Assembly (NCBI GenBank): GCA_015075165.1 | Contig: JABTUY010000002.1 | Location: 875,868-907,867, forward strand | Direction: 5' to 3' | Origin: Ideonella sp. | GTDB taxonomy: Bacteria > Pseudomonadota > Gammaproteobacteria > Burkholderiales > Burkholderiaceae_C | DNA length: 32,000 nt | In this document: positions 4,334-22,978 of the stretch, in pieces | Layout: each line of letters begins with the position of its first letter | How positions within the stretch are numbered: position 1 is the first letter of the stretch | Program-made: the position numbers and the translations under genes | The notes under the pieces: model-generated | The model's database searches: none | Seen by the model: only the letters and a program-made list of their open reading frames with translations | Told to the model about the DNA's origin: nothing

Positions 4334-4361
4334 TGGCGCAGCGCCCACGAGGAGCCGCCCG

Positions 4362-6497
4362 ATGATGCTGTGCCCCAAGTGCCACCAGCCGCTGGCCGAC
4401 GAAGACGACGAGCCCTACATCTGCTGTGCCGGCGCGCCGATGCAGTGGCACTGCACCGGTTGCGGCAAGGTCAGCGAGGGCTTCGCGTTTCCGTATGGCC
4501 GCTGCCCGCTGTGCGCCGGTGCGCTCGAGTTGTACGGCGAGCAGCCGGCGATCGCGCACGATGAAGCCGCGTCGCTCGCTGCGGTGCGCACCGCGTTCGA
4601 GATCGAGCTCGGTGGCCGCGCGTTCTATCAGCGCGCCGCGGTGGCCTGCGACGACCCCGAGCTGCGCGCGCTGTTCGGCCGCTTCGCGGTGATGGAAGGC
4701 GAGCACATGGAGACGCTGGCGCGTCGCTATCACCTCGATCTGCCCGATCCGTCGCCGCAGCTCCACCTGGAGACTGCGGCGGTCTATGTCGGCACCGGCG
4801 AGGCGCCGCGCGACGCGGCAGGCTTGTTCAAGGTGGCCATCGGCCTCGAGAAGCGCGCGGTGGCGTTCTTCAGCGAGCGCGCCGGCCGCTGCGCGCCCGG
4901 CTCGGCCGAGCACCGGCTGTATGACGAACTGGCCGCCGAGGAGCGCGAGCACGCCAACATCCTGAGCACCGAGTTCGCGCGCTGGCGCGATCGCATGCCC
5001 GGCCTGTTCGGTGCGGCGCCGCGCCCCGCGTCATCACCCGACGCCGCGCCGCTCAACGCCGCCGAGCTGCTGCTGGCGGGGCACGACGACGACCGCATCG
5101 CGATCGAGTGCGGCGACGAGCGGCTCACCTACGCCGAGCTGCGCGACCGCGTGGCGCGCGCTGCCGCGGTCTGGCGTGCGAAAGGCCTGCGCCCGGGCGA
5201 TCGCGTGGCGGTCAAGCTGCCCGACGGGCTCGACTGGGTCGTCTGCTGGCTCGGCACCATCTGGGCCGGCGGTGTTGCGGTGGGCGTGAACCCGCGCGTG
5301 CCGGCACCCGAGTGGCACTACATCCTCGACGAGGCCGGCTTCAACGTCATCGTCGCCGAGTCCGATGCCGACACGCCCGAGCCGTGGCGCTCGCGCGTGC
5401 ACACGCTGGCCGATGGCCGCCACGCGGTGGCGGCGGCGCAGCCGGTGGCACCGGCGCAGGTCGACCCCGACACGCCAGCGTTCTGGCTGCACACCTCGGG
5501 CACGTCGGGCAAACCGAAGGCGGTGGTGCATGCGCACCGCTGCGTGCGCGAGGTGGGCCGCATCTCGGCCGAGCGCATGGGCATCCGCGCGAGCGACCGG
5601 CTGTACGCCAGCTCGAAGCTGTTCTTCGCCTACCCGCTGACCAACCTGCTGCTGGCCGGCCTGCGCATCGGCGCCACGCTGATCGTCGACCCGCAGTGGC
5701 CAACTCCGGAGTCGGTGGCCACTGCGGTGACCACGCGCCGCCCGAGCGTGCTGTTCAGCGTGCCGTCGCTGTACCGCACGCTGCTGCACGATGGCCGCGC
5801 GCGCGCGATCGCCGAGGCCGGCGTGCGCGTGTGCATCTCCGCTGGCGAGGCGCTGCCGGCCAGCCTGCGCCAGGCCTGGCGCGAGGCCACCGGGTTGCCG
5901 ATGATCGACGGCTACGGCGCCTCCGAGGTGCTGGTGCTGGTGCTCACCGCGGTCGACGGCGACGACGCGCTGTGCCTGTCGCCGGGCACGCAGGCCGAGC
6001 CGCTCGATGCCGCCGCGGCCGCCGCCGGCACGCCAACGCGGCTGTTGATCAGCAGCCCGATGCAGGCGCTGGGCTACCTCGACCGCCCGGCCGCGCAGGC
6101 CGACAGCTTCCGCGACGGGCGCTTCTGCCCGGCCGACCTGTTCGTGCCCACGGCCACCGGTGGCTGGCGCTTCGCCGGCCGCGAGGATTCGATGGTCAAG
6201 GTCAAGGGCCGCTGGGTGAACCTGGTCGATCTCGAGGAGCGCCTCGGCGCCGGCGTGCCCGGCCTGCGCGAGGGCGCAGCGGTGCTGATGCCCGATGCCG
6301 ACGGCATGGGCACGGTGGCGTACTTCTACGCCGCCGGCGCGAGCGATGCGGCGGTGAAGGCCGAACTCGAACGCCGCATCGCCGCGCTGCCGCCGTACCA
6401 GCGCCCGACGCGGCTGCAAGCGATCGACGCGCTGCCACGCACGGCCACCGGCAAGCTGCTGCGGCGCAAGCTGCTGGAGGGGCAAGGGGCGGGGTGA
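4362..6497 (+). CDS. Three-domain protein, 711 aa: N-terminal Cys-rich Zn-ribbon/rubredoxin-like domain, ferritin-like diiron (rubrerythrin-type) domain, and C-terminal benzoate/4-hydroxybenzoate-CoA ligase family adenylate-forming domain
   Basis: It starts at ATG 4362 with GGAG at 4351-4354. Cys motifs are CPKC, CC, CTGC and CPLC. The diiron ligand pattern E...ExxH...E...ExxH is present (EIELGGRAFY, MEGEHMETL, GLEKRAVAFF, AEEREHANIL). The AMP-binding core includes TSGTSGKPKAVVH, SKLFFAYPLTN, DGYGASE and PRTATGKLLRRKL. Pathway context points to 4-hydroxybenzoate-CoA ligase, but substrate specificity is not provable from sequence. Confidence 0.85.
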   Translation: MMLCPKCHQPLADEDDEPYICCAGAPMQWHCTGCGKVSEGFAFPYGRCPLCAGALELYGEQPAIAHDEAASLAAVRTAFEIELGGRAFYQRAAVACDDPELRALFGRFAVMEGEHMETLARRYHLDLPDPSPQLHLETAAVYVGTGEAPRDAAGLFKVAIGLEKRAVAFFSERAGRCAPGSAEHRLYDELAAEEREHANILSTEFARWRDRMPGLFGAAPRPASSPDAAPLNAAELLLAGHDDDRIAIECGDERLTYAELRDRVARAAAVWRAKGLRPGDRVAVKLPDGLDWVVCWLGTIWAGGVAVGVNPRVPAPEWHYILDEAGFNVIVAESDADTPEPWRSRVHTLADGRHAVAAAQPVAPAQVDPDTPAFWLHTSGTSGKPKAVVHAHRCVREVGRISAERMGIRASDRLYASSKLFFAYPLTNLLLAGLRIGATLIVDPQWPTPESVATAVTTRRPSVLFSVPSLYRTLLHDGRARAIAEAGVRVCISAGEALPASLRQAWREATGLPMIDGYGASEVLVLVLTAVDGDDALCLSPGTQAEPLDAAAAAAGTPTRLLISSPMQALGYLDRPAAQADSFRDGRFCPADLFVPTATGGWRFAGREDSMVKVKGRWVNLVDLEERLGAGVPGLREGAAVLMPDADGMGTVAYFYAAGASDAAVKAELERRIAALPPYQRPTRLQAIDALPRTATGKLLRRKLLEGQGAG

Positions 6498-9710: not shown

Positions 9711-9714
<4 letters not shown>
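9256..9714 (-). CDS. YhbP/UPF0306-like split-barrel FMN-binding protein (pyridoxamine 5'-phosphate oxidase superfamily)
   Basis: Only the C-terminal part of track ORF 9256..11190 is credible. The proposed start is TTG at 9714, overlapping the regulator stop (TTGA). The sequence LLQQHHVMTLATHG...RFPLVGRG...LIDNSLGFGHRDEL resembles E. coli YhbP as I recall it (RFPVAR...FTDNTLGFGKK). Confidence 0.65.
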
Positions 9715-11444
<1,730 letters not shown>

Positions 11445-11502
11445 CGGGCGGCTCCTTCGCAACGCGAGTCAGCGTTGTACGCCGGCGCGGGGTGGTCGGG
11501 AC

Positions 11503-11745: not shown

Positions 11746-11761
11746 TGGCACGAACCGTGCA
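11746..11761 (+). promoter_or_regulatory. Sigma54 (-24/-12) promoter of the pps-ppc operon
   Basis: The sequence TGGCAC-GAACC-GTGCA has exact GG-N10-GC spacing. It lies about 68 bp upstream of the ppsA ATG, next to a divergent sigma54 activator gene. Confidence 0.7.
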
Positions 11762-11828
11762 ACAGACACCGGGTACGGCCCGGCCGGGCCCGACGATGCC
11801 GACCCCACACACGAACAGGAGACAGGCG

Positions 11829-13664
11829 ATGAAATTTCCGGTTCCGCACGACGTCAAGGCCAAGACCATTCCCGGTACCGAAGGCTGGGAGCGGATGTAT
11901 CCGTACCAGTATCAATTCGTCACCGACGACGCGGTGCGCAACCAGTACGAGAAGGAGACGTTCTGGTTCTACGACGGGCTGCACTACCCCGAGCCGCTGT
12001 ACCCGTTCGACACCATCTGGGACGAGGCCTGGTACCTCGCGCTGAGCCAGTACAACAACCGCATCTTCATGGTCCCGCCGGTGCGCGGCGTCGACCACCG
12101 CGTGATCAACGGCTACGTCTACATCTCGCCGGTGCCGGTGAAGGACGGCAACGAGATCGGCTCGCGGGTGCCGCACTTCATGGAGCGCGCCGGCCACTAC
12201 TACAAGAACTGGGACGCGCTCGAGGCCAAGTGGAAGGTCAAGATGGAAGCGACCATCCGCGAACTCGAGGCGCTGAAGATCCCGCCGCTGCCCGAGATGG
12301 AAGACAGCCGCGTCGTCACCGAAGCGCTCGGCGAGTCCACCGGCTTTCATCTGCTGAAGGCCTACGACGACCTGATCAACCTCGGCATCAAGTGCTGGCA
12401 GTACCACTTCGAGTTCCTGAACCTGGGCTATGCGGCCTACGTGTTCTTCCTCGACTTCGTGCAGAAGCAGTTCCCGAGCATCCCGGCGCAGCGGGTGACG
12501 CAGATGATCTCGGGCATCGACGTGATCATGTACCAGCCCGACGAGGAGCTGAAGAAGCTCGCGGCGAAGGCGATCGAGCTCGGCGTCGGCGATCTGGTGA
12601 AGTCCAGCCCCGAGTGGGCCAAGGTCGAGGCGTCGCTCAAGGCCGATGGCAAGGGCCGCGAGTGGCTCAGCGCACTGAGCCTGGCCAAGGAGCCGTGGTT
12701 CAACGTCTCCACCGGCACCGGCTGGTTCCACCACGACCGCTCGTGGAACGATCAGATGAACGTGCCGCTGCTCGGCATCCAGACCTACATCGACAAGATC
12801 CGCGCCGGCGTGTCGATCGAGCGGCCGACCGCGAAGGTGCGCGCCGAGCGCGACCGCATCACCGCCGAGTACCGCGACCTGATCACCAACGAGGCCGACC
12901 GCAAGCAGTTCGACGAGCTGCTCGGCTGCGCGAAGACGGTGTTCCCGTACGTCGAGAACCACCTGTTCTACGTGGAGCACTGGTTCCACTCGGTGTTCTG
13001 GAACAAGATGCGCGAGGTGGCGGCGATCCTGAAGACGCACGGCGTGATCGCCGACGTCGAAGACGTCTGGCTGCTGCGCCGCGACGAGATCAAGCAGGCG
13101 CTGTGGGACGTGGTCACCGCCTGGGCCACCGGCGTGACGCCGCGCGGCACCAAGACCTGGCCGCCCGAGATCGAATGGCGCAAGGGCGTGATGGCCAAGT
13201 TCAAGGCCTGGGCGCCGCCGCCGGCGATCGGCACCGCGCCCGAGGTGATCCAGGAGCCGTTCACCATCGTGCTGTGGGGCGTGACGAACAAGTCGCTGGC
13301 CGACTGGGCCGCGGTGCAGGAAGTCGGCGACCCCGACAAGATCTCCGAGCTCAAGGGCTTTGCCGGCAGCCCCGGCATCGTCGAGGGCAAGGCGCGCGTG
13401 TGCCGCACGGTGGCCGAGGTGGGCGAGCTGAAGGAGGGCGAGATCCTGGTCGCGCCCACCACCTCGCCGTCGTGGGCACCGGCGTTCGCCAAGATCGGCG
13501 CCTGCGTCACCGACGTCGGCGGCGTGATGAGCCATGCCGCGATCGTCTGCCGCGAGTACGGCATGCCGGCGGTGGTGGGTACCGGCCACGCCACCAAGGT
13601 GATCAAGAGCGGCATGATGCTGCGCGTCGACGGCTCGACGGGCGCGGTGAGCATCGCGCGCTGA
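11829..13664 (+). CDS. ppsA: Phenylphosphate synthase protein 1 (PEP-synthase-like central/phosphohistidine swivel part), 611 aa, about 70 kDa
   Basis: It starts at ATG 11829 with AGGAG 7 nt upstream, in the frame of track ORF 11757..13664. The PEP-utilising mobile domain carries the phosphohistidine motif GGVMSHAAIVCREYGMPAVVG. Size and order (70, 40 and 24 kDa proteins) match the described Thauera system. Confidence 0.9.
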   Translation: MKFPVPHDVKAKTIPGTEGWERMYPYQYQFVTDDAVRNQYEKETFWFYDGLHYPEPLYPFDTIWDEAWYLALSQYNNRIFMVPPVRGVDHRVINGYVYISPVPVKDGNEIGSRVPHFMERAGHYYKNWDALEAKWKVKMEATIRELEALKIPPLPEMEDSRVVTEALGESTGFHLLKAYDDLINLGIKCWQYHFEFLNLGYAAYVFFLDFVQKQFPSIPAQRVTQMISGIDVIMYQPDEELKKLAAKAIELGVGDLVKSSPEWAKVEASLKADGKGREWLSALSLAKEPWFNVSTGTGWFHHDRSWNDQMNVPLLGIQTYIDKIRAGVSIERPTAKVRAERDRITAEYRDLITNEADRKQFDELLGCAKTVFPYVENHLFYVEHWFHSVFWNKMREVAAILKTHGVIADVEDVWLLRRDEIKQALWDVVTAWATGVTPRGTKTWPPEIEWRKGVMAKFKAWAPPPAIGTAPEVIQEPFTIVLWGVTNKSLADWAAVQEVGDPDKISELKGFAGSPGIVEGKARVCRTVAEVGELKEGEILVAPTTSPSWAPAFAKIGACVTDVGGVMSHAAIVCREYGMPAVVGTGHATKVIKSGMMLRVDGSTGAVSIAR

Positions 13665-13666
13665 TC

Positions 13667-14788
13667 ATGCTGGCGGCCGTGCAGTCGACACCGCAGCGCG
13701 CGGCGCCCGGCGCCGCGCCCACCGTGCGCTGGTTCGAGGACTGCGACAAGTCCTCGTTGCCCGAGGTGGGCGGCAAGTGCGCCTCGCTCGGCGAGCTGAT
13801 CCACGCCCAGGTGCGCGTGCCGCCGGGCTTCGCCGTCACCACGCACGGCTGTACGCGCTTCCTGCGCGAGGCCGGCATCCTGCCGGAGATCGCCGGCCTG
13901 CTGCAGGGCCTGCCGCACGACGACATCGTGCGGCTGGAGCAGGCGTCGGCGGCGATCCGCCAGATGATCGAATCGCGCCCGATGGCCATCGAGCTCGAAG
14001 ACGAGATCGCCGAGGCCTACCGGCGCCTCGCGCTGCGCTGCGGCCTGCCGGCCGCGCCGGTGGCGGTGCGCTCCAGCGCCACCGCCGAAGACCTGCCCGG
14101 CGCCAGCTTCGCGGGCCAGCAGGACACCTTCCTGTGGATCCGCGGCGCCGACGAGCTGCTGCACCACGTGCGGCGCTGCATCTCGAGCCTGTACACCGCG
14201 CGCGCCATCGGCTACCGGCAGAAGATGGGCTTCGATCATGCGCAGGTGGCGATCAGCGTCGGCGTGCAGAAGATGGCCAACGCGTTCACCGCCGGCGTGA
14301 TGTTCACCGTGCACCCGGCCAACGGCGACCGCTCGGTGATCGTGATCGACTCCAACTTCGGCTTCGGCGAGTCGGTGGTGTCGGGCGAGGTCACGCCGGA
14401 TCACTTCGTCGTCAACAAGGTGACGCTCGACATCACCGAGCGCACCATCTCGCGCAAGGAGCGCTGCTACACGGTCGACCTCAAGTCGCAGTGCAGCCGC
14501 GCGATCGACGTGCCGCTCGAGCGCCAGACCGTGCAGTCGCTGATCGACGACGAGATCTGCGAGCTGGCCTGGATGGGCAAGCAGATCGAGAAGCACTACG
14601 GCTGCCCGATGGACATCGAGTGGGCGGTCGACAAGGACGTGCCCTCGGGCGGCAACATCTTCATCCTGCAGGCGCGCCCCGAGACGGTGTGGAGCGCGAA
14701 GGCCAAGGCGGCCAGCGCGGCCCCGGCCGAAACCTCGGCGATGAACTACATCGTGTCGGGCCTGCTGTCGGGCCGCAGGCTCGGCTGA
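13667..14788 (+). CDS. ppsB: Phenylphosphate synthase protein 2 (PEP-synthase N-terminal ATP-grasp/nucleotide-binding part), 373 aa
   Basis: It starts at ATG 13667, 2 nt after the ppsA stop, in the frame of track ORF 11606..14788. PPDK_N-type motifs are present (VGGKCASLGEL, VAVRSSATAEDLPGASFAGQQDT, MDIEWAVD). Confidence 0.9.
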   Translation: MLAAVQSTPQRAAPGAAPTVRWFEDCDKSSLPEVGGKCASLGELIHAQVRVPPGFAVTTHGCTRFLREAGILPEIAGLLQGLPHDDIVRLEQASAAIRQMIESRPMAIELEDEIAEAYRRLALRCGLPAAPVAVRSSATAEDLPGASFAGQQDTFLWIRGADELLHHVRRCISSLYTARAIGYRQKMGFDHAQVAISVGVQKMANAFTAGVMFTVHPANGDRSVIVIDSNFGFGESVVSGEVTPDHFVVNKVTLDITERTISRKERCYTVDLKSQCSRAIDVPLERQTVQSLIDDEICELAWMGKQIEKHYGCPMDIEWAVDKDVPSGGNIFILQARPETVWSAKAKAASAAPAETSAMNYIVSGLLSGRRLG

Positions 14789-14810
14789 CCACGAACAAGG
14801 AGACCGCTGC

Positions 14811-15485
14811 GTGATCGTGCGCAACTGGATGAAGCCGACACCGACCACGGTAACCGGCGACACGCTGCTCAGCGAGGCCAACCAGATCTTCGCCGACAGC
14901 AACTTGCATGGACTGCCGGTGGTCGAGGGCGGCCGGCTGCGCGGGCTGATCACGCGCGCCAACTGCCTGCGCGCGGCGCACCACGTGGCGCGCACGCAGA
15001 GCCCCGACGAGTTCGCCTACTTCTCGAGCCGGCTGCGCGTGCGCGACCTGATGGTGCGCAACCCGGCCACTGTCGACGCCGACGAGACGATGGAGGCCTG
15101 CCTGCAAAAAGGCCAGGAGCTGCGCATCGGCCAGTTCCCGGTGATGAGCCAGGGCGCGGTGGTCGGCATGATCTCGGCCAACGAGGTGTTCGCGATGGCG
15201 GCGCACTTCCTCGGCGCGTTCGAGCGCCGCAGCGGCGTCACGCTGGCGCCGATGGCGCTGGTGCCGGGCGCGATCGGCCGCGTCACCGATGTCGTCGAGG
15301 CCAGCGGCGCCGAAGTGGTGGCGATCTACCCGATCGGCTCGGGCCGCACGCCATCGCCACTGAAGAAGCTGGTCGTGCGCTTTCACGGCGGCTGTGCGCG
15401 CACGGTGAGCGAAGCGCTCGAGCGCGCCGGCTACGCGGTGATCGAGTCGGTCGAAGACGCGCACGCCGTCGCCCGCGCGGCCTGA
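14811..15485 (+). CDS. ppsC: Phenylphosphate synthase stimulating protein 3 (tandem CBS domains plus ACT-like tail), 224 aa
   Basis: It starts at GTG 14811 with AAGGAG 8 nt upstream. Two CBS repeats are visible (VRNWMKPTPTTV...GLPVVEGGRLRGLIT and VRDLMVRNPATV...FPVMSQGAVVGMIS). The 24 kDa size matches protein 3. Confidence 0.85.
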   Translation: MIVRNWMKPTPTTVTGDTLLSEANQIFADSNLHGLPVVEGGRLRGLITRANCLRAAHHVARTQSPDEFAYFSSRLRVRDLMVRNPATVDADETMEACLQKGQELRIGQFPVMSQGAVVGMISANEVFAMAAHFLGAFERRSGVTLAPMALVPGAIGRVTDVVEASGAEVVAIYPIGSGRTPSPLKKLVVRFHGGCARTVSEALERAGYAVIESVEDAHAVARAA

Positions 15486-15535: not shown

Positions 15536-16954
15536 ATGGACCTTCGCAGCTACATCGATCAATGCGCACACGCCGGCGAACTCAAGCGCGTGTCGGCGCC
15601 GGTCGACTGGAACCTGGAAATCTCGCACATCTCCAAGCTGGTCGAGGAGCGCAAGGGCCCGGCACTGCTGTTCGAGAACGTCAAAGGCTACTCGACGCCG
15701 GTGTTCACCGGTGCGTTCGCCACCACCAAGCGGCTGGCGATCATGCTCGGGCTGCCGCACGGCAACACGCTGTGCGAGTCGGCGCAGGCGTGGATGAAGA
15801 AGACGATCACCGCCGAAGGCCTGATCAAGGCCAAGCAGGTCAACGACGGCCCGGTGCTCGAGAACGTGTTCGAGGGCGACAAGGTCAATCTCGAGATGTT
15901 CCCGGTGCCGCGCTTCTTTCCGCTCGACGGCGGGCGCTACATCGGCACCACGGTGTTCGTCGTGCTCAAAGACCCCGAGACCGGCGAGACGAACCTCGGC
16001 ACCTATCGCATGCAGATGCTCGACCACAAGAGCTGCGGCGTGCAGATCCTGCCGGGCAAGCGCGGCGAGCGCATCATGAAGAAGTACGCCAAGCTGGGCA
16101 AGAAGATGCCCGCCGCGGCGGTGATCGGCTGCGACCCGCTGCTGTTCATGGCCGGCACGCTGATGCACAAGGGCGCCAGCGACTTCGACATCACCGGCAC
16201 CGTGCGCGGCCAGCAGGCCGAGTACCTGATGGCGCCGCTCACCGGCCTGCCGGTGCCCGCGGGCGCCGAGATCGTGCTCGAGGGCGAGATCGACCCCACG
16301 GCGTTTCGCCCCGAAGGGCCGTTCGCCGAGTACACCGGCTACTACACCGACGAGCTGCACAAGCCGATTCCGAAGCCGGTGCTCGAGGTCAAGCAGATCC
16401 TGCACCGCAACCAGCCCATCCTGTGGGCCACCGGCCAGGGCCGCCCGGTCACCGACGTGCACATGCTGCTGTCGTTCACGCGCACGGCCACGCTGTGGAC
16501 CGAGCTCGAGAAGATGAAGATCCCGGGCATCCACAACGTCTGCGTGCTGCCTGAGTCGGCCGGCCGCTTCTGGGCCGTGGTGTCGGTCAAGCAGGCCTAC
16601 CCGGGCCACTCGCGCCAGGTGGCCGATGCGGTGATCGGCAGCAACACCGGCAGCTACGGCATCAAGGGCGTGATCACGGTCGACGAGGACATCGCCGCCG
16701 ACGACCTGCAGCGCGTGGTGTGGGCGCTGTCGTGCCGCTACGACCCGATGCGCGGCACCGAGCTGATCAAGCGCGGCCGTTCGACGCCGCTCGACCCCGC
16801 ACTCGACCCCAACGGCGACAAGCTGACCACGTCGCGCATCCTGATGGACGCCTGCATCCCCTACGAGTGGAAGCAAAAACCCGTCGAGTCGCGGCTCGAC
16901 GACGAGACGCTCGCGCGACTGCGCGGCCGCTGGGCCGAGTTCGGCCTCGATTGA
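15536..16954 (+). CDS. ppcB: Phenylphosphate carboxylase UbiD-family subunit, 472 aa (probably beta)
   Basis: UbiD-family motifs are present (NLGTYRMQ, EGPFAEYTGYY). It follows ppsC directly. The alpha/beta assignment is by size only (472 aa versus 484 aa). Confidence 0.85.
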   Translation: MDLRSYIDQCAHAGELKRVSAPVDWNLEISHISKLVEERKGPALLFENVKGYSTPVFTGAFATTKRLAIMLGLPHGNTLCESAQAWMKKTITAEGLIKAKQVNDGPVLENVFEGDKVNLEMFPVPRFFPLDGGRYIGTTVFVVLKDPETGETNLGTYRMQMLDHKSCGVQILPGKRGERIMKKYAKLGKKMPAAAVIGCDPLLFMAGTLMHKGASDFDITGTVRGQQAEYLMAPLTGLPVPAGAEIVLEGEIDPTAFRPEGPFAEYTGYYTDELHKPIPKPVLEVKQILHRNQPILWATGQGRPVTDVHMLLSFTRTATLWTELEKMKIPGIHNVCVLPESAGRFWAVVSVKQAYPGHSRQVADAVIGSNTGSYGIKGVITVDEDIAADDLQRVVWALSCRYDPMRGTELIKRGRSTPLDPALDPNGDKLTTSRILMDACIPYEWKQKPVESRLDDETLARLRGRWAEFGLD

Positions 16955-16961
16955 GCAAACC

Positions 16962-17510
16962 ATGAACGACAAGACCGAACGCGCCGGGCGCACACGCTTC
17001 GCCGAGCTGAGCAAACTGCTGTCCAGCCTGCCGTGCCCCGAGACGCTGCTGTGCGTGCGCGCCGGCGAAGTCACCGACGTCGCCGCGGTGACCACGATGT
17101 GGGTGTCGTACGACCCGGTGATCGTCGCCGTCTACCTGCGCCCGGGCATCCGCACGCACAAGCTGGTCAACGAGGGGCGGCAGTTCACGCTCAACGTCGT
17201 CGACGAGGCGCAAAACCCGCAGGCGCTGCTGGCCGGCTCGCTCAAGGGCGACGACCCCGACAAGCTGAAGAAGCTGGCGCTGCAGTTCGAGCCCGCGGCG
17301 TCGATCGACAGCCCGCGCGTGAGCGGCGCGGCGGCGAGCTACGAATGCCGCGTGCTGAAGGTGGCCGCGTGCGGCGACCACGACCTGTTCCTCGGTCTCG
17401 TCACCGGTTGGAACGTGCGCGACGGCGGCAAGCCGGTGGTGCGCTGGGGCGGACACAGCCACGCCATCGGGGCGACGCTCGAAGCCCCCGCCGTCAAGTA
17501 CCCACATTAG
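16962..17510 (+). CDS. Flavin reductase-like (Flavin_Reduct split-barrel) domain protein, 182 aa
   Basis: It starts at ATG 16962. The family pattern is AAVTTMWVSYDPVIVAVYL...GRQFTLNVV...SPRVSGAAASYECRVLKVAACGDHDLFLGLV, which compares with HpaC-type reductases (...PP.v.v....F.vNvl....P.l.ga.a.leC.....GDH.lf.g.V). Confidence 0.75.
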   Translation: MNDKTERAGRTRFAELSKLLSSLPCPETLLCVRAGEVTDVAAVTTMWVSYDPVIVAVYLRPGIRTHKLVNEGRQFTLNVVDEAQNPQALLAGSLKGDDPDKLKKLALQFEPAASIDSPRVSGAAASYECRVLKVAACGDHDLFLGLVTGWNVRDGGKPVVRWGGHSHAIGATLEAPAVKYPH

Positions 17511-17553: not shown

Positions 17554-18063
17554 ATGGACAAGGCCAAGAACGTGAAGCTGGTGATCCTCGACGTCGACGG
17601 CGTGATGACCGACGGCCGCATCGTCATCGACGACAACGGCGTCGAGCAGCGCAATTTCGACATCAAGGACGGCCTGGGCGTCGTCGCGCTGCAGATGTGC
17701 GGTGTCGACGTGGCGATCATCACGTCGAAGAAGTCGGGCTCGGTGCGCCACCGCGCCGAAGAGCTGAAGATCAAGCGCTTCCACGAGGGCATCAAGAAGA
17801 AGACCGAGCCCTACGAGCAGATGCTCGCCGAGATGGGCATCGGCGATGCGCAGGTGGCCTATGTCGGCGACGACCTGGTCGACCTCTCGTTGATGAAGCG
17901 CGTGGGCTTTCCGGTCGCGGTGGCCGATGCAGTGCCCGAGGTGCGCGCCGCCGCCGCCTACGTGACACAGGCACGCGGCGGCCACGGTGCCGTGCGCGAG
18001 GCCGCCGAGGCGATTCTCAAGGCACAGGGCAAGTGGGACGCCATCCTGGCCAAGATCGGCTGA
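17554..18063 (+). CDS. ppcD: Phenylphosphate carboxylase delta subunit (KdsC-like HAD phosphatase), 169 aa, about 18 kDa
   Basis: It starts at ATG 17554 with AGGAGAGG upstream. HAD motif I is present (LVILDVDGVMTDG), and similarity to KdsC runs throughout (YVGDDLVDLSLMKRVGFPVAVADA, GGHGAVREAAEAIL). Confidence 0.85.
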   Translation: MDKAKNVKLVILDVDGVMTDGRIVIDDNGVEQRNFDIKDGLGVVALQMCGVDVAIITSKKSGSVRHRAEELKIKRFHEGIKKKTEPYEQMLAEMGIGDAQVAYVGDDLVDLSLMKRVGFPVAVADAVPEVRAAAAYVTQARGGHGAVREAAEAILKAQGKWDAILAKIG

Positions 18064-18095: not shown

Positions 18096-19550
18096 GTGGC
18101 CGTACCACCGCGCAGCAACCGCGAGTTCGTCGAAGCCTGCATCGCCTCGGGCGATGCGGTGCGCATCGCACAGCAGGTCGACTGGGACAACGAGGCCGGC
18201 GCCATCGTGCGCCGCGTCTGCGAGCTGGCGGCGCCGGCGCCGTTGATGGAGAGCATCAAGGACTATCCCGGTTTCCGCTACTTCGGCGCGCCGCTGTCCA
18301 CCTACCGCCGCATGGCGATCTCGATGGGGCTTGATCCGAAGACCCCGCTGCCCGAGTTGGGCCGCGAGTACCTCAAGCGCACCAACGGCGAGCCGGTGCA
18401 GCCGGTGCTGGTCGACCGCCGCGCCGCGCCGTGCAAGGAGAACATCCTGCGCGGCAACGATGTCGACCTGTGCCGCCTGCCGGTGCCGCTGGTGCACGAC
18501 GGCGACGGTGGCCGCTACGTCGGCACCTGGCACGCGGTGATCACCAGGCACCCGGTGCGCGGCGACGTCAACTGGGGCATGTACCGCCAGATGATGTACG
18601 ACTCGCGCACGATGTCGGGCGCGGTGTTCCCGTTCTCCGACCTCGGCAAGGCGCTGAACGAGTACTACCTGCCGCGCGGCGAGACCTGTCCGTTTGCCAC
18701 CGCGATCGGCCTGTCGCCGCTGGCGGCGATGGCCGCGTGCGCGCCGTCGCCGATCCCCGAGCCCGAGCTGACCGGCATGCTGGCCGGCGAGCCGGTGAAG
18801 CTGGTGAAGTGCGAGACCAACGACCTCGAGGTGCCGGCCGACGCCGAGATCATCCTCGAGGGCGAGATCCTGCCCGACTACACGGTCGAGGAGGGGCCGT
18901 TCGGCGAGTACACCGGCTACCGCACCAGCCCGCGCTCGCCACGCGTCACGTTCCGCGTCAACTGCATTACCTACCGCAACAACGCGACGATGACGATCTC
19001 CAACATGGGCGTGCCGCAGGACGAAGGGCAGCTGCTGCGCTCGTTCTCGCTCGGCCTGGAGCTCGAGAAGCTGCTGAAGAGCCAGGGCATCCCGGTGACC
19101 GGCGTCTACATGCACCCGCGCTCGACGCACCACATGATGATCGTCGGCGTCAAGCCCACCTACGCCGGCATCGCGATGCAGATCGCGCAGCTCGCGTTCG
19201 GCTCCAAGTTGGGGCCGTGGTTCCACATGGTCATGGTGGTCGACGATCAGACCGACATCTACAACTGGGACGAGGTCTATCACGCGTTCTGCACGCGCTG
19301 CAACCCCGAGCGCGGCATCCACGTGTTCAAGAACACCACCGGCACCGCGCTGTACCCGCACGCCAGCCCGCACGACCGCCAGTACTCGATCGGCTCGCAG
19401 GTGCTGTTCGACTGTCTGTGGCCGGTGGACTGGGACAAGATCAACGACGTGCCGTCGCTGGTGTCGTTCCGCAACGTCTACCCGAAGGCAGTACAGGAGA
19501 AGGTGCTCGCCAACTGGACGAACTACGGCTTCGCGCCCACCACACGCTGA
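18096..19550 (+). CDS. ppcA: Phenylphosphate carboxylase UbiD-family subunit, 484 aa (probably alpha)
   Basis: It starts at GTG 18096 with AGGAG 9 nt upstream, in the frame of track ORF 17697..19550 (the 5' part of that ORF overlaps ppcD out of frame). UbiD motifs are present (NWGMYRQM, EGPFGEYTGYR). Confidence 0.85.
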   Translation: MAVPPRSNREFVEACIASGDAVRIAQQVDWDNEAGAIVRRVCELAAPAPLMESIKDYPGFRYFGAPLSTYRRMAISMGLDPKTPLPELGREYLKRTNGEPVQPVLVDRRAAPCKENILRGNDVDLCRLPVPLVHDGDGGRYVGTWHAVITRHPVRGDVNWGMYRQMMYDSRTMSGAVFPFSDLGKALNEYYLPRGETCPFATAIGLSPLAAMAACAPSPIPEPELTGMLAGEPVKLVKCETNDLEVPADAEIILEGEILPDYTVEEGPFGEYTGYRTSPRSPRVTFRVNCITYRNNATMTISNMGVPQDEGQLLRSFSLGLELEKLLKSQGIPVTGVYMHPRSTHHMMIVGVKPTYAGIAMQIAQLAFGSKLGPWFHMVMVVDDQTDIYNWDEVYHAFCTRCNPERGIHVFKNTTGTALYPHASPHDRQYSIGSQVLFDCLWPVDWDKINDVPSLVSFRNVYPKAVQEKVLANWTNYGFAPTTR

Positions 19551-19567: not shown

Positions 19568-19822
19568 ATGAGCCAATGGGAAGTGTTCGTCACCGACCTC
19601 GCCGAGCTGGCCGAGGGGCGCGACCTGGAGCTGACGATCCGCACGCTCGAGCCGGGTATCCACAAATACACCTACAAGCGCGCCAAGGTGCGTGTCTCGG
19701 CCAAGACCGATGCGCTGCCCGACGGTCTGCAGGTGCGCTTCGGCCGTGGCCAGCTGGCGCCGCAGCGCTACTCGCTCAAGCTGCTCGAGGAGGTCGATCG
19801 CCTGCCGCCCAAGTACCGCTGA
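19568..19822 (+). CDS. ppcC: Small (84 aa, about 10 kDa) protein, candidate phenylphosphate carboxylase gamma subunit
   Basis: It starts at ATG 19568, at the tail of track ORF 18431..19822. Its size and position immediately after the large subunit match the described 10 kDa gamma subunit. I recognise no independent motif. Confidence 0.65.
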   Translation: MSQWEVFVTDLAELAEGRDLELTIRTLEPGIHKYTYKRAKVRVSAKTDALPDGLQVRFGRGQLAPQRYSLKLLEEVDRLPPKYR

Positions 19823-19843
19823 ACGCGACAGGGAGTGCTCGAC

Positions 19844-21193
19844 ATGGCGTGGCGCGACCTGCGGGCGTTTCTCGACGGGCTGGGCAGCGGCCTGCGCCGC
19901 GTGCGCGAGCCGTTCTCGCCGCGCTTCGAGATCGCCGCCGCGCTGCGCGAGGCGCGCGCCGATGCACCGGCGCTGCTGTTCGAGTCGGTCACCGGGCACC
20001 CGGGCTGGCGCGTCTGCGGCAACCTGATCGCCAGCCGCGAGCGGCTGGCGCGCGCGTTCCACACCACGCCGGACCGGCTCGCCGAGGAATACCTGCAACG
20101 CCGCCAGCGCGGCATCGAGCCGATCGGCGCTACGCAGGTGCCGGTGAAAGAGGTCGTGCTGACGCACGCCGACGACCTGCTCGGCACGCTGCCGATCCTC
20201 ACGCACCACGAGCGCGACGGCGCGCCGTACATCACCACCGGTGTCGTGCTGTGCAACGAGCCCGGCAGCGGGCGCCGCGGCATGGGAATCCACCGCATGC
20301 AGGTGCATGGTCCGCGCCGGCTCGGCCTGTTCCTGGCCAACCCGCCGCTGACGCTGTTTCACGCCGCCGCCGAGGCGCGCGGCGAGCCGCTCGAAGTGGC
20401 GGTGGCGCTGGGGCTCGAGCCGGCGCTGGTGGTGGCCGCGGTGTGCAAGGTGGGCCCGCTGGTGCCCGACAAGATGGCGATCGCCGGCGCACTGCGCGGC
20501 GAGCCGGTGCCGCTGATCCGCGGCGAGACGGTGGCGGTGGAGGTGCCCGCACGCGCCGAGGTGGTGATCGAAGGCCGCGTGCTGCCCGGCGTGCGCCAGC
20601 ACGAGGGCCCGTTCGGCGAGAACACCGGCGCCTACTTCAGCGCCGACAGCGCGGTAATCGAGGTCACCGCGGTCACGCACCGGCGCGAGCCGATCTACCC
20701 TGGCCTGACGCCGTGGGCGGCCGATGTCGACATGCTGCTGTGGCTGGCCGCCGGCACCGAGCTGCTCGGCCAGTTGCGCGCGCTGGTGGGCGACGTGGCC
20801 GATCTCGAGCTGGTCGGCGGCACCGCGGGCTTCTCGATGGTGGTGTCGGTGTCGGGTACCTCGCGCTCCGAGGTGAGGCGGCTGATCCACCTGGCGCTCG
20901 CGCTCGACAAGCGGTTGAAATGCGTGACCGTGGTCGACGACGACGTCGACATCCGCAACCCGCGCGAGGTGGCCTGGGCGATGGCCACGCGCCACCGGCC
21001 GCAGCACGACACCATCGTCATCGCCGGCACCGATGCCTACGTGATCGACCCGTCGGCCGCCGGCGCGGGCCAAGGCTCGAAAATCGGCTTCGACGCCACG
21101 CGCGGCGGCGGCGGCGCGGCGTTCGACAAGGCGCGGCTCGAGCCGCAGGCGCTGGCCAAGGCGCGCGCGGTGCTCGGCGAGTCGATGGCGTGA
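19844..21193 (+). CDS. Third UbiD-family (prFMN-dependent decarboxylase/carboxylase) paralog, 449 aa, function unknown
   Basis: It starts at ATG 19844 with GGGAG 8 nt upstream. UbiD motifs are present (GMGIHRMQV, EGPFGENTGAY). It is shorter and more divergent than ppcA/ppcB. Confidence 0.85.
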   Translation: MAWRDLRAFLDGLGSGLRRVREPFSPRFEIAAALREARADAPALLFESVTGHPGWRVCGNLIASRERLARAFHTTPDRLAEEYLQRRQRGIEPIGATQVPVKEVVLTHADDLLGTLPILTHHERDGAPYITTGVVLCNEPGSGRRGMGIHRMQVHGPRRLGLFLANPPLTLFHAAAEARGEPLEVAVALGLEPALVVAAVCKVGPLVPDKMAIAGALRGEPVPLIRGETVAVEVPARAEVVIEGRVLPGVRQHEGPFGENTGAYFSADSAVIEVTAVTHRREPIYPGLTPWAADVDMLLWLAAGTELLGQLRALVGDVADLELVGGTAGFSMVVSVSGTSRSEVRRLIHLALALDKRLKCVTVVDDDVDIRNPREVAWAMATRHRPQHDTIVIAGTDAYVIDPSAAGAGQGSKIGFDATRGGGGAAFDKARLEPQALAKARAVLGESMA

Positions 21194-21252: not shown

Positions 21253-21840
21253 ATGCGACTCGTGGTCGGAATGTCCGGTGCCAGCGGCGCCATCTATGGC
21301 GTGCGCATCCTCGAGGTGCTGAAGCAGCTGCAAGTCGAGACGCACCTGGTGATGTCCGACTCGGCCAAGCGCACCATCGTCTACGAAACCGATCGCAGCA
21401 TCGACGAGGTGAAGGCGCTCGCCAACCACGTGCACGAGCTGGCCGACGTCGGCGCCTGCATCTCCAGCGGCTCGTTCAAGCACGACGGCATGGTGATCGC
21501 GCCGTGCTCGATCAAGACGCTGTCGGCGCTGGCGCATTCGTTCAACACCAACCTGCTGATCCGCGCCGCCGACGTCACGCTCAAAGAGCGCCGCAAGCTC
21601 GTGTTGATGGTGCGCGAGACGCCGCTGCACCTGGGGCACCTGCGGCTGATGACGCAGGTCACCGAGACCGGCGCCGTACTGGTGCCACCGCTGCCGGCGT
21701 TCTACCACCGGCCGAAGACGCTCGACGACATCATCAACCAGTCGGTCAACAAGGCGCTCGACCAGTTCGGCGTCGATTGCAGCCTGTTCAAGCGCTGGAC
21801 CGGCAACGAAGAGCGCGAGCATGCCCGCTCGCGCGCCTGA
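21253..21840 (+). CDS. ubiX: Flavin prenyltransferase UbiX (prFMN synthase), 195 aa
   Basis: It starts at ATG 21253. The canonical UbiX/Pad1 N-terminus is present (MRLVVGMSGASGAIYGVRILEVL), along with MVIAPCSIKTLSA, LVLMVRETPLH and PAFYHRPKT. Confidence 0.9.
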   Translation: MRLVVGMSGASGAIYGVRILEVLKQLQVETHLVMSDSAKRTIVYETDRSIDEVKALANHVHELADVGACISSGSFKHDGMVIAPCSIKTLSALAHSFNTNLLIRAADVTLKERRKLVLMVRETPLHLGHLRLMTQVTETGAVLVPPLPAFYHRPKTLDDIINQSVNKALDQFGVDCSLFKRWTGNEEREHARSRA

Positions 21841-22282
21841 GCCGCCTGCGGTCGCGTCGCCGCAGGCTGCCTCGTCGCCAGCGGTGCCGGGCGCCGCCGC
21901 CTGTTTCACCGGCGTGGTGTGCAGCGGCCTCGGCGAGGGCGCGCGCTTCGTCGCGATCGACTGGGTGCAGCGCGAGATGCGGCGCGCGCTCGGCTTCGAG
22001 CCGTGGCCCGGCACCTTGAACCTGCGCATGGCCGGCACCGCGTGGCAGCGCTGGCGCCGCGCGCTGGCGCAGCGCCCGGGCATCGTGCTGCACCCGGCGG
22101 CCGGGTTTTGCGCCGCGCGCTGCTTCGCCGTGCGCCTCGACGGGCGCACAGCGGCTGCGGCGGTGATCCCCGACGTCGACGGCTACCCCGACGACAAGCT
22201 CGAACTGGTGGCGCCGCTGGCGCTGCGCGAAGCCCTGAACCTGCGCGACGGCAGCCTGGTCCGCGTCAGCTTCGACCGATGA
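21821..22282 (+). CDS. Archaeal-type CTP-dependent riboflavin kinase (DUF120/RibK) homolog
   Basis: The core GVVCSGLGEGARFVAIDWVQREMRRALGFEPWPGTLNLRM ... ELVAPLALREALNLRDGSLVRVSF is colinear with Methanocaldococcus MJ0056 as I recall it (GEVVSGLGEGRYF...LGFEPYEGTLNLKL...[23 protein letters not shown]). ATG 21821 overlaps the ubiX 3' end by 20 nt. The first 28 aa are low-complexity, so an alternative start at GTG 21884 is possible. Confidence 0.7.
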   Translation: MPARAPEPPAVASPQAASSPAVPGAAACFTGVVCSGLGEGARFVAIDWVQREMRRALGFEPWPGTLNLRMAGTAWQRWRRALAQRPGIVLHPAAGFCAARCFAVRLDGRTAAAAVIPDVDGYPDDKLELVAPLALREALNLRDGSLVRVSFDR

Positions 22283-22498
22283 GAATGAACCACTCCCGCA
22301 GCGCCTTCGGCACCTCCCCCTGCAAGGCGGCACCGTCAGCGGCCCGGCAAAGCCGGGCCTGCTGCTGGAGTCTGCAGGCGCTCAAGCCGTCAACGCCGAC
22401 GCCGGTCGGCTTGGAGCCGCGGCCTTCGCTCCGCGACGGCTCTCGGTTGCACCGGTGCAGGCATCGCGGGTCGCGCGAAGCGCTGTGGAGCAACTGAG

Positions 22499-22978
22499 TT
22501 GTCGTCCGCGCGTCCGGCACCCAGCGCTGGCCTGCCGGCCGCGACGCTGCCGCGGCTGGCCGATGGTGCGCCGGTGCTGCTGCTCAGCGCCGACCGCTGG
22601 GGCCGACCGCACGCCACCTACTCGTGGGCGGTGGCGCTCGCGCCGCGGCGGCTGTGCATCGCGGTCGACCGCGGCGGGCGCACCAGCGCCAACTGGCTGC
22701 GCAGCGGGCAGGCGGCGGTGCAGGTGATCGGCGCCGGCGGCTCGAACCTGCTGATCGGCGGCCGCGCCGTGCGTCTGCCGTGGACGCCGGTCTGCGCGCC
22801 GACGATGGAAGCCTGGCAGCTCGCGGTGCGTACCGTGCTCGACCAGGCCTGGCCGGGGGTGGTCACCAGCGCGCTGCGTTACCGCGGCAGCGGCGCTGGC
22901 GGCGCGGCGGCGCTGCGCCGCTTCGAGCGCGCGCTGTGCCGCGAGCTGCGCGACACCCCTGGCGTGGCCCGGGTTTGA
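22499..22978 (+). CDS. Hypothetical protein, 159 aa, with weak resemblance to PNPOx-like split-barrel proteins
   Basis: It starts at TTG 22499 with GGAG 8 nt upstream. It shows the strong GC3 bias typical of host genes. The pattern PVLLLSADRWGRPHATYSWAV...RLCIAVDRGGRTSANWLRSGQAAVQVIG resembles the N-terminal strands of PNPOx-family proteins. No firm motif is present. Confidence 0.45.
   Translation: MSSARPAPSAGLPAATLPRLADGAPVLLLSADRWGRPHATYSWAVALAPRRLCIAVDRGGRTSANWLRSGQAAVQVIGAGGSNLLIGGRAVRLPWTPVCAPTMEAWQLAVRTVLDQAWPGVVTSALRYRGSGAGGAAALRRFERALCRELRDTPGVARV

Follow-up and report, generated by a model that had tools for sequence, protein, structure and literature searches.

Why would a bacterial operon for anaerobic phenol degradation carry, directly behind its flavin prenyltransferase gene ubiX, a gene of the archaeal-type riboflavin kinase family? 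The question arises from a stretch of 32,000 nt, here called the window, that comes from a metagenome-assembled genome (MAG) of the Burkholderiales assigned to Ideonella sp. (assembly GCA_015075165.1, contig JABTUY010000002.1, positions 875,868 to 907,867 of the forward strand). Its locus is a pps-ppc operon, encoding phenylphosphate synthase and carboxylase, and the open reading frame (ORF) that follows ubiX encodes a homolog of RibK, a riboflavin kinase that depends on cytidine triphosphate (CTP). The RibK-like gene lies next to UbiX or UbiD genes in ~100 genomes and metagenome contigs. The evidence tips us toward reading it as a horizontally acquired, monofunctional riboflavin kinase that would feed flavin mononucleotide (FMN) to UbiX within an operon-encoded module for the supply of prenylated FMN (prFMN).

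The ORF is a true homolog of the PF01982/RibK family, with matches far above chance. Searched against the profile of this family (CTP-dep_RFKase/DUF120), as the initial annotation of the locus had advised, it aligns to positions 1–120 of 121 with an expectation value (E) of 1.4e-29 and 102.9 bits versus a cutoff of 25. A phmmer search of the PDB recovers MJ0056 of Methanocaldococcus jannaschii (E 4e-12) and RbkR of Thermoplasma acidophilum (taRbkR; E 2e-7). The three motifs first quoted in support of the kinase assignment are present (GLGEG at residues 36–40, LGFEPWPGTLNL at 57–68 and APLALREALNLRDGSLV at 131–147) in an ORF that is colinear with MJ0056, and the G+C content by codon position (0.77/0.60/0.92) follows the pattern of the real genes in this window of 70% G+C. 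NCBI already names an identical protein from an Ideonella sp. MAG 'CTP-dependent riboflavin kinase', and the family assignment itself is therefore not new. An exhaustive search of 1.84 billion representatives with a profile hidden Markov model (E ≤ 1e-3) found 1969 members of the PF01982-type family. A sharp gap between bacterial and archaeal scores was considered for this set and rejected, as the scores form a continuum.

The protein is predicted to adopt the cradle-loop barrel fold of MJ0056. An AlphaFold2 model based on 20 homologs has a predicted local distance difference test score (pLDDT) of 83.6 and a predicted template modeling (TM) score of 0.75, and MJ0056 or RbkR accounts for each of the top seven Foldseek matches of this model in the PDB (E 1e-9 to 1e-7), with MJ0056 RibK (2VBU; E 1.4e-9, TM 0.81) as the best match and RbkR (5TRD) also among them. 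Residues 29–151 form the catalytic domain. The first 28 residues are of low complexity, weakly conserved and disordered in the model (pLDDT <60), and begin with an MP(A/S)xA sequence common to the homologs. A Pfam scan returns PF01982 alone and no helix-turn-helix family; lacking a winged helix-turn-helix (MarR-like) domain, the protein cannot be a regulator of the RbkR type.

Comparison with the characterized archaeal proteins shows how closely the likeness extends. MJ0056 (2VBS/2VBT/2VBU/2VBV, 2P3M, 2OYN; EC 2.7.1.161) belongs to the same Pfam family and is likewise a single-domain, monofunctional protein, and the two have in common the GxGEG and PGTLN loops, the L-R helix and the F/P/E residues of the flavin pocket as well as the predicted fold. 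They are nevertheless only 26–30% identical. The bacterial protein lacks the beta-hairpin insertion of MJ0056 (LPIKILIG), has W48, C97 and C101 in place of other residues and an Ala in place of a motif Arg, and carries the additional 28-residue N-terminus. It also differs in belonging to a bacterial catabolic operon, where it would presumably be an accessory rather than the sole riboflavin kinase of the cell. RbkR, found in T. acidophilum and other Archaea (3CTA, 5TRD; PMC5397151), has a kinase domain that is homologous and in which the CTP- and FMN-site residues are conserved, but it is a bifunctional riboflavin kinase and transcription regulator with the DNA-binding domain that is missing here.

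The ligand sites can be compared residue by residue, since the structure of taRbkR defines contacts to CTP by Gly102, Gly104, Gly106, Thr131, Leu132, Asn133, Leu202 and Arg203 and contacts to FMN by Tyr115, Phe165, Pro185, Tyr190 and Glu195, and SGxGEGR and YxGTLN are the motifs of RibK and RbkR that bind the nucleotide polyphosphate (PMC5397151). In HMMER and MAFFT alignments, all CTP-site counterparts are present in the ORF (G36, G38, G40, T65, L66, N67, L135 and R136), as are four of the five FMN-site counterparts (F96, P117, Y122 and E128, corresponding to Phe165, Pro185, Tyr190 and Glu195). The residue at position 122 is shared with taRbkR, but is His in MJ0056. We counted conservation over 83 homologs taken from genome loci. 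G36, G64, T65, N67, G95, C97, A99, C101, P117, Y122, P123, E128, R136 and G144 do not vary at all; F96 and W48 (82/83 each) and G38 (81/83) are nearly invariant, and either G or A occupies position 40. W62 stands in place of the Tyr of YxGTLN, at a position that is W, Y or H among the homologs. Invariant residues at both sites indicate purifying selection on the nucleotide site and on the flavin site.

A conserved flavin pocket would also suit a protein that is no kinase at all, and instead carries FMN or the reduced forms FMNH2 and prFMNH2 to UbiX and the UbiD subunits or away from them, in the manner of LpdD. Dedicated prFMN-binding helpers are known from UbiDX systems, namely LpdD, a prFMNH2 chaperone (PMC10865409), and PhdC (PMC13040415), and like them the RibK-like gene is a small member of a UbiD/UbiX operon with a presumed role in cofactor provision. 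Its tight coupling to UbiX or UbiD and a score below the cutoffs for equivalogs also agree with such a role. The polyphosphate of a nucleoside triphosphate (NTP), however, and not flavin, is the ligand of R136, the glycine loop and the PGTxN loop, and these are as invariant as the flavin pocket in the 83 sequences; a protein that makes no use of nucleotides would hardly be expected to show this. In sequence the protein is unrelated to the HpaC-like family that includes PhdC, and it differs from PhdC in fold as well. We consider a pure carrier improbable. A riboflavin kinase would also act earlier in the pathway than LpdD or PhdC, making the substrate of UbiX rather than binding or oxidizing its product.

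The position of the gene relative to ubiX is as distinctive as its sequence. UbiX itself is securely identified (269.7 bits versus a cutoff of 188 for the NCBIfam model NF004685, 'UbiX family flavin prenyltransferase') and is preceded by a Shine-Dalgarno-like AGAGG 7 nt 5′ of its ATG at 21253. The ORF list and the raw sequence place its TGA at 21838-21840, and the RibK-like ATG at 21821 indeed lies 20 nt inside the 3′ end of ubiX, as had been reported at the outset. Promoter-like sites and terminator-like sites on the plus strand were looked for between ubiD and the end of the RibK-like ORF, and neither kind was found. The two genes are putatively coupled in translation through the 20-nt overlap. 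An RNA hairpin around the RibK-like ATG (21813-21834) was considered as a coupling device and discarded, its stability being no greater than that of dinucleotide shuffles (z −0.17). Further downstream, 60 nt 3′ of the RibK-like stop and within the 217-nt gap before the next gene, orf159, the plus strand contains a perfect 8-bp GC-rich inverted repeat, GGCCCGGC-AAA-GCCGGGCC (22343-22361), with no T-tract.

How general is this linkage? When one genome per GTDB species was scanned with a pattern, 138 genomes proved to contain relatives. The best 80 were taken, and among these 80 the carriers are almost all Betaproteobacteria. They include the cultured Aromatoleum diolicum, A. anaerobium, A. toluolicum, A. 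tolulyticum, A. evansii, A. toluvorans, A. toluclasticum and A. buckelii, as well as Azoarcus sp. Aa7, Sulfuritalea, Ca. Desulfobacillus denitrificans and MAGs of Rubrivivax, Azohydromonas and Burkholderiaceae. Mapping the window proteins onto the loci shows a shared architecture, ppsA-(ppsB)-ppsC-ppcB-(HpaC-like)-ppcD-ppcA-ppcG-UbiD-UbiX-RibK-like. In 77 of 82 non-redundant genome loci the gene immediately 5′ of the RibK-like one is UbiX, and the five exceptions are two contigs that break off shortly 5′ of the gene, the second copy in A. buckelii, a Methylomirabilia contig and a fusion to a HAD domain. The RibK-like start is offset by zero or less from the ubiX stop in 45 of the 77 loci, the commonest arrangement, with modes at −4, −20, −32 and −35, and overlaps of 1–35 nt recur. 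A. buckelii (L073) has two RibK-like copies, one of them directly after ppcG.

Two further samples extend the linkage. Homologs from a search of 5.8 billion proteins were examined on their contigs: three with 50–65% identity (P0026, P0037 and P0041) are encoded directly 3′ of UbiX in pps-ppc clusters, and one with 43% identity (P0045) also directly follows UbiX, with a 4-nt overlap. Conversely, a survey of metagenome contigs that started independently from PpcG, a marker of phenylphosphate carboxylase, found the RibK-like gene in 36 of 40 informative ppc clusters. The linkage with ubiX in related genomes on which the initial annotation had staked its proposal is thus borne out, and a location in the phenol operon, so regularly repeated, is unlike that of a housekeeping riboflavin kinase as found in Archaea. 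A Methylomirabilia MAG (L082, 2965-8772) contributes a cluster of another kind, consisting of UbiD, AA_synth (PF06684), PNPOx, UbiX, UbiD, a 167-aa ORF with no Pfam match and the RibK-like gene. This non-phenol cluster has no Ppc gamma or delta subunits, which indicates that the association is with the UbiX/UbiD cofactor system and not merely with one gene order.

These distributions bear on a second alternative, in which the protein is a true riboflavin kinase serving general FMN homeostasis or salvage during anaerobic aromatic catabolism, and its place behind ubiX is an accident of packing that was inherited vertically. Nearly all carriers are Betaproteobacteria with a single cluster architecture, the proteins form one clade, so that many loci do not amount to many independent events, and six loci separate the RibK-like gene from UbiX. 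Yet the linkage survives to 43% protein identity and through rearranged clusters, it recurs in the non-phenol UbiD/UbiX cluster of another phylum, and the UbiX, Nudix, PNPOx-like and HpaC-like neighbors all point to one cofactor pathway. We regard an accident of packing as unlikely.

The neighbors in question were counted in 74 loci. A Nudix hydrolase gene lies directly 3′ of the RibK-like gene in 52 of them, in clusters of the Rhodocyclales type (one example, L004 3615-4169, encodes an N-terminal zinc-ribbon-like stretch), and is absent from this window and from Burkholderiales-type clusters. Nudix enzymes of E. coli convert dimethylallyl diphosphate (DMAPP) to dimethylallyl phosphate (DMAP) for prFMN (PMC12359138), and the hydrolase is a candidate for the same conversion or, alternatively, for an FAD pyrophosphatase. 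A homolog of orf153/orf159, a weakly PNPOx-like protein of ~155 aa, is found 3′ of the RibK-like gene in 54 of the 74 loci; orf153 (L004 4166-4627) is the last gene of the Rhodocyclales cassette UbiD-UbiX-RibK-Nudix-orf153. The window protein Orf159 is 37% identical to Rhodocyclales Orf153 (E 5e-23), and the homolog in locus L001 matches PNPOx_N with E 4.6e-6. This conserved partner of the RibK-like gene probably binds flavin. An HpaC-like gene occurs in seven of the 74 loci, all of the Burkholderiales type or in loosely classified proteobacterial MAGs. PhdC, a maturase of prFMN, is a member of the HpaC-like flavin reductase family (PMC13040415), and by analogy the HpaC-like protein of the window may serve the carboxylase either in maturation or by reducing FMN.

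It was also suggested initially that the fold might have been recruited to generate the prenyl phosphate co-substrate of UbiX. More broadly, the protein could be a kinase with another acceptor, either prenol (dimethylallyl alcohol), giving DMAP, or a modified flavin such as reduced riboflavin or a prenylated species at the riboflavin level. Our understanding of where DMAP originates is incomplete, with prenol kinases like ThiM able to provide it (PMC12359138), the Burkholderiales-type clusters are without the Nudix gene and hence have no obvious encoded source of DMAP, and position 49, C97 and C101 differ from MJ0056 near the isoalloxazine site. Such a change of substrate is opposed by the residues that hold the flavin (F96, P117, Y122 and E128), which are invariant or nearly so, by fusion partners within the family that are flavin-related (PNPOx, FMN_dh) rather than isoprenoid-related, and by the lack of resemblance to the kinase families known to form DMAP: only models of the RibK family come up in Pfam and NCBIfam scans, with PF01982 as the sole Pfam match, and none of the ThiM or isopentenyl phosphate kinase type. 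For the prenyl phosphate in particular, the frequent Nudix gene directly downstream would already offer a known route from DMAPP to DMAP. The W48/C97/C101 signature, absent from MJ0056 and taRbkR, is found in nearly all of the top 150 family representatives, including those of Bathyarchaeia that are encoded in housekeeping neighborhoods, and the idea that it arose in bacteria, or in phenol clusters specifically, to suit a new substrate was therefore rejected. Taken together, an acceptor other than riboflavin appears quite improbable.

We return to the reading of a riboflavin kinase that supplies UbiX, which can be put as a sequence of steps. A RibK-fold, NTP-dependent riboflavin kinase would have been acquired from Archaea by a bacterial lineage and fixed in the anaerobic phenol operon, where it would be co-transcribed and translationally coupled with ubiX. 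Phenol would induce the operon, leading to the synthesis of three UbiD-family proteins (PpcA, PpcB and the third UbiD) that would all require loading with prFMN. The RibK-like kinase would turn riboflavin into FMN on site and so raise the FMN supply, the FMN would be reduced to FMNH2, and UbiX would prenylate it with DMAP to give prFMNH2. The accessory genes, Nudix in clusters of the Rhodocyclales type, PNPOx-like and, in those of the Burkholderiales type, HpaC/PhdC-like, would complete a self-contained module of prFMN supply and maturation.

Bacterial RibF carries FMN further to flavin adenine dinucleotide (FAD), so a monofunctional kinase would make sense in a phenol operon. RibF (RibCF), the ATP-dependent riboflavin kinase/FAD synthetase described as bifunctional (PMC5397151), and eukaryotic riboflavin kinase (1N06, 1NB0) catalyze the reaction that we propose here, from riboflavin to FMN. 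They show no family-level homology to the RibK-like protein, however, and Foldseek gives marginal matches (E ~0.1, TM ~0.3); RibF moreover has an adenylyltransferase domain that the RibK-like protein lacks.

A fuller assignment of functions can be offered tentatively, as a possibility rather than an expectation: a dedicated anoxic prFMN module in which the RibK-like protein would convert riboflavin to FMN, Nudix would convert DMAPP to DMAP, UbiX would carry out the prenylation, and PNPOx-like Orf153/159, the HpaC/PhdC-like protein or both would provide FMN reduction, O2-independent oxidative maturation or hand-over of prFMN. In a more radical version, the RibK-like protein would act on or carry a prenylated or reduced flavin instead of riboflavin.

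Several observations weigh against a riboflavin kinase dedicated to UbiX. Both NCBIfam equivalog cutoffs are missed by a wide interval, with 59.5 versus 168 bits for NF040694 (ribK_Meth) and 78.8 versus 279 bits for NF010762 (PRK14165). The conservation of binding residues anticipated by the initial annotation holds for the entire CTP site but stops short at one place in the FMN pocket, as the flavin-stacking Tyr115 of taRbkR aligns to V49, adjoined by the near-invariant W48. The Arg of SGxGEGR (Arg107 of taRbkR) is A41, and K200 and Y201, which contact the cytidine base in taRbkR, are not conserved, so that the sequence gives no NTP preference. At the level of gene clusters, four of the 40 ppc clusters have no RibK-like gene, and the PpcG sequences of three of the four are the most divergent (34–46% identity); it follows that the gene is not essential for phenylphosphate carboxylation in general. 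In six metagenomic ppc clusters (L131, L150, L153, L155, L158 and L159) the gene comes after UbiD and UbiX lies elsewhere in the cluster, and strict coupling of the two is thus not universal. Finally, one related carboxylase of the UbiD type, that of D. anilini, has been reported to function with plain FMN (PMC7500099).

The relatives of the protein bear on its origin. The closest named archaeal relatives found are DUF120 proteins of Bathyarchaeia (e.g. P0070 and P0243; 40% identity). They have the W48/C97/C101 signature in common with the bacterial proteins but differ in context, being encoded among exosome, ribosomal and inositol-1-phosphate synthase genes and not near UbiX or UbiD, as fits a housekeeping riboflavin kinase. 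In a crude neighbor-joining tree the phenol-cluster proteins and the Methylomirabilia protein form a single clade, separate from Bathyarchaeia and from a group of proteins fused to HAD phosphatases. One archaeal-to-bacterial acquisition would fit this tree, which is not a rigorous one. Among the top 150 representatives we scanned 20 multidomain proteins, in which the partner is commonly a HAD_2 phosphatase, in both orders, and more rarely PNPOx, FMN_dh, MFS or glyoxalase; a UbiX-RibK fusion of the Rosetta-stone kind was sought and none was present among the 20. The HAD fusion parallels the FMN hydrolase/riboflavin kinase of plants. RibK-like/HAD_2 fusions are seen in the betaproteobacterial locus L086 (4388-5527 and 6399-8075) and in P0077, P0084 and others; in L086 the HAD fusion is followed by a Nudix/metallo-beta-lactamase fusion, and there is no UbiX within the 14.9 kb examined.

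What is new here is therefore the context of a known family, which is strongly conserved and previously undescribed and which we judge to be of moderate significance for prFMN supply and anaerobic aromatic degradation. The pps-ppc setting, the existing NCBI name and the extension of the association to a cassette in which UbiD, UbiX, RibK-like, Nudix and PNPOx-like genes come together go beyond what had been noticed initially. A phenol cluster of Thauera aromatica reported in 2000 is said to contain unknown ORFs after its UbiD- and UbiX-like ORFs. In full-text literature searches we found no paper linking RibK or DUF120 with UbiX, prFMN or phenylphosphate carboxylase. RibK orthologs have been stated to be absent from Bacteria (PMC5397151), a statement that the present finding corrects, although databases already annotate such bacterial proteins. 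The gene would also be a further case of an archaeal cofactor enzyme transferred into a bacterial catabolic operon.

UbiD-family (de)carboxylases attract attention in connection with CO2 fixation and the anaerobic degradation of aromatic pollutants, but the limiting supply and maturation of prFMN make these enzymes difficult to activate outside their hosts. The sources of FMN and DMAP, and the way in which prFMNH2 matures in the absence of O2, are questions with partial answers so far. A conserved cassette of a putative monofunctional riboflavin kinase, UbiX, Nudix and small flavin-binding proteins in cultured, genetically tractable Aromatoleum provides concrete candidates. If the dedicated module is real, the 25-year-old unknown ORFs of betaproteobacterial phenol clusters would give a genetic handle on O2-free supply and maturation of prFMN; if the protein is an ordinary riboflavin kinase with a supply role only, the advance is modest.

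Features of the RibK-like gene and of the surrounding pps-ppc operon (positions within the window)
Feature	Position	Strand	Remarks
XylR/PheR-type sigma-54 activator	9711-11462	-	divergent from the pps-ppc operon
Phenylphosphate synthase region	11757-15485	+	ppsA-like (PEP-utilizers domain) and CBS-domain ppsC, with the ppsB interval between
ppcB-like, UbiD family, putative phenylphosphate carboxylase beta subunit	15536-16954	+	assigned from position and the alpha, gamma and delta subunits of the cluster
HpaC-like flavin reductase family	16962-17510	+	between ppcB and ppcD; PF01613, E 5e-21
ppcD, phenylphosphate carboxylase delta subunit (KdsC-like HAD)	17554-18063	+	TIGR02726, 311.9 bits
ppcA, phenylphosphate carboxylase alpha subunit	18105-19550	+	TIGR02723, 1050 bits
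ppc gamma subunit	19568-19822	+	PF09662, E 4.5e-38
Third UbiD-family gene of the cluster	19835-21193	+	passes the generic TIGR00148 model only
ubiX, flavin prenyltransferase	21253-21840	+	PF02441, E 1e-43; NF004685
Overlap of ubiX 3′ end and RibK-like 5′ end	21821-21840	+	20 nt exactly
RibK-like gene (PF01982, archaeal-type CTP-dependent riboflavin kinase family)	21821-22282	+	153 aa, ATG start
G36-L-G-E-G40, glycine loop	21926-21940	+	corresponds to the polyphosphate-binding motif SGxGEGR
P63-G-T-L-N67, phosphate/metal loop	22007-22021	+	corresponds to YxGTLN
F96-C-A-A-R-C101	22106-22123	+	F96 corresponds to FMN-binding Phe165 of taRbkR; C97/C101 invariant
P117...Y122...E128 and L135-R136	22169-22228	+	FMN-pocket residues and nucleotide-base helix
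orf159, weakly PNPOx-like (split-barrel flavin-binding)	22499-22978	+	PNPOx_N, E 0.0065, no significant Pfam match

The genes of the operon are given in the table. The plus strand carries, in order, the pps genes, ppcB-like, HpaC-like, ppcD, ppcA, the gamma subunit gene, the third UbiD gene, ubiX, the RibK-like gene and orf159, and an activator equivalent to the divergently encoded one has been described as PheR in A. aromaticum (PMC10715001). By score the third UbiD-family protein is neither Ppc alpha or beta nor VdcC, and its gene is located 5′ of UbiX in nearly all mapped loci. Between the PheR-like activator and ppsA, the plus strand contains a sigma-54-type element, TGGCACGAACCGTGC (TGGCAC-N5-GTGC; 11746-11760). 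As a promoter of ppsA it is suitably placed, but the window shows no enrichment of this pattern relative to chance, and the candidate was dropped. The element overlaps the assumed start codon of ppsA, and the true start is thus probably further downstream. Elsewhere in the window, the plus-strand gene at 4323-6497 encodes a 724-aa AMP-binding protein of the coenzyme A ligase type with an N-terminal rubrerythrin-like segment (PF02915, E 5e-5), an unusual pairing for an aromatic acid-coenzyme A ligase. A gene for a HepT-like ribonuclease toxin (PF01934; 7027-7383, plus strand) is situated between the aromatic-catabolism genes and the regulator.

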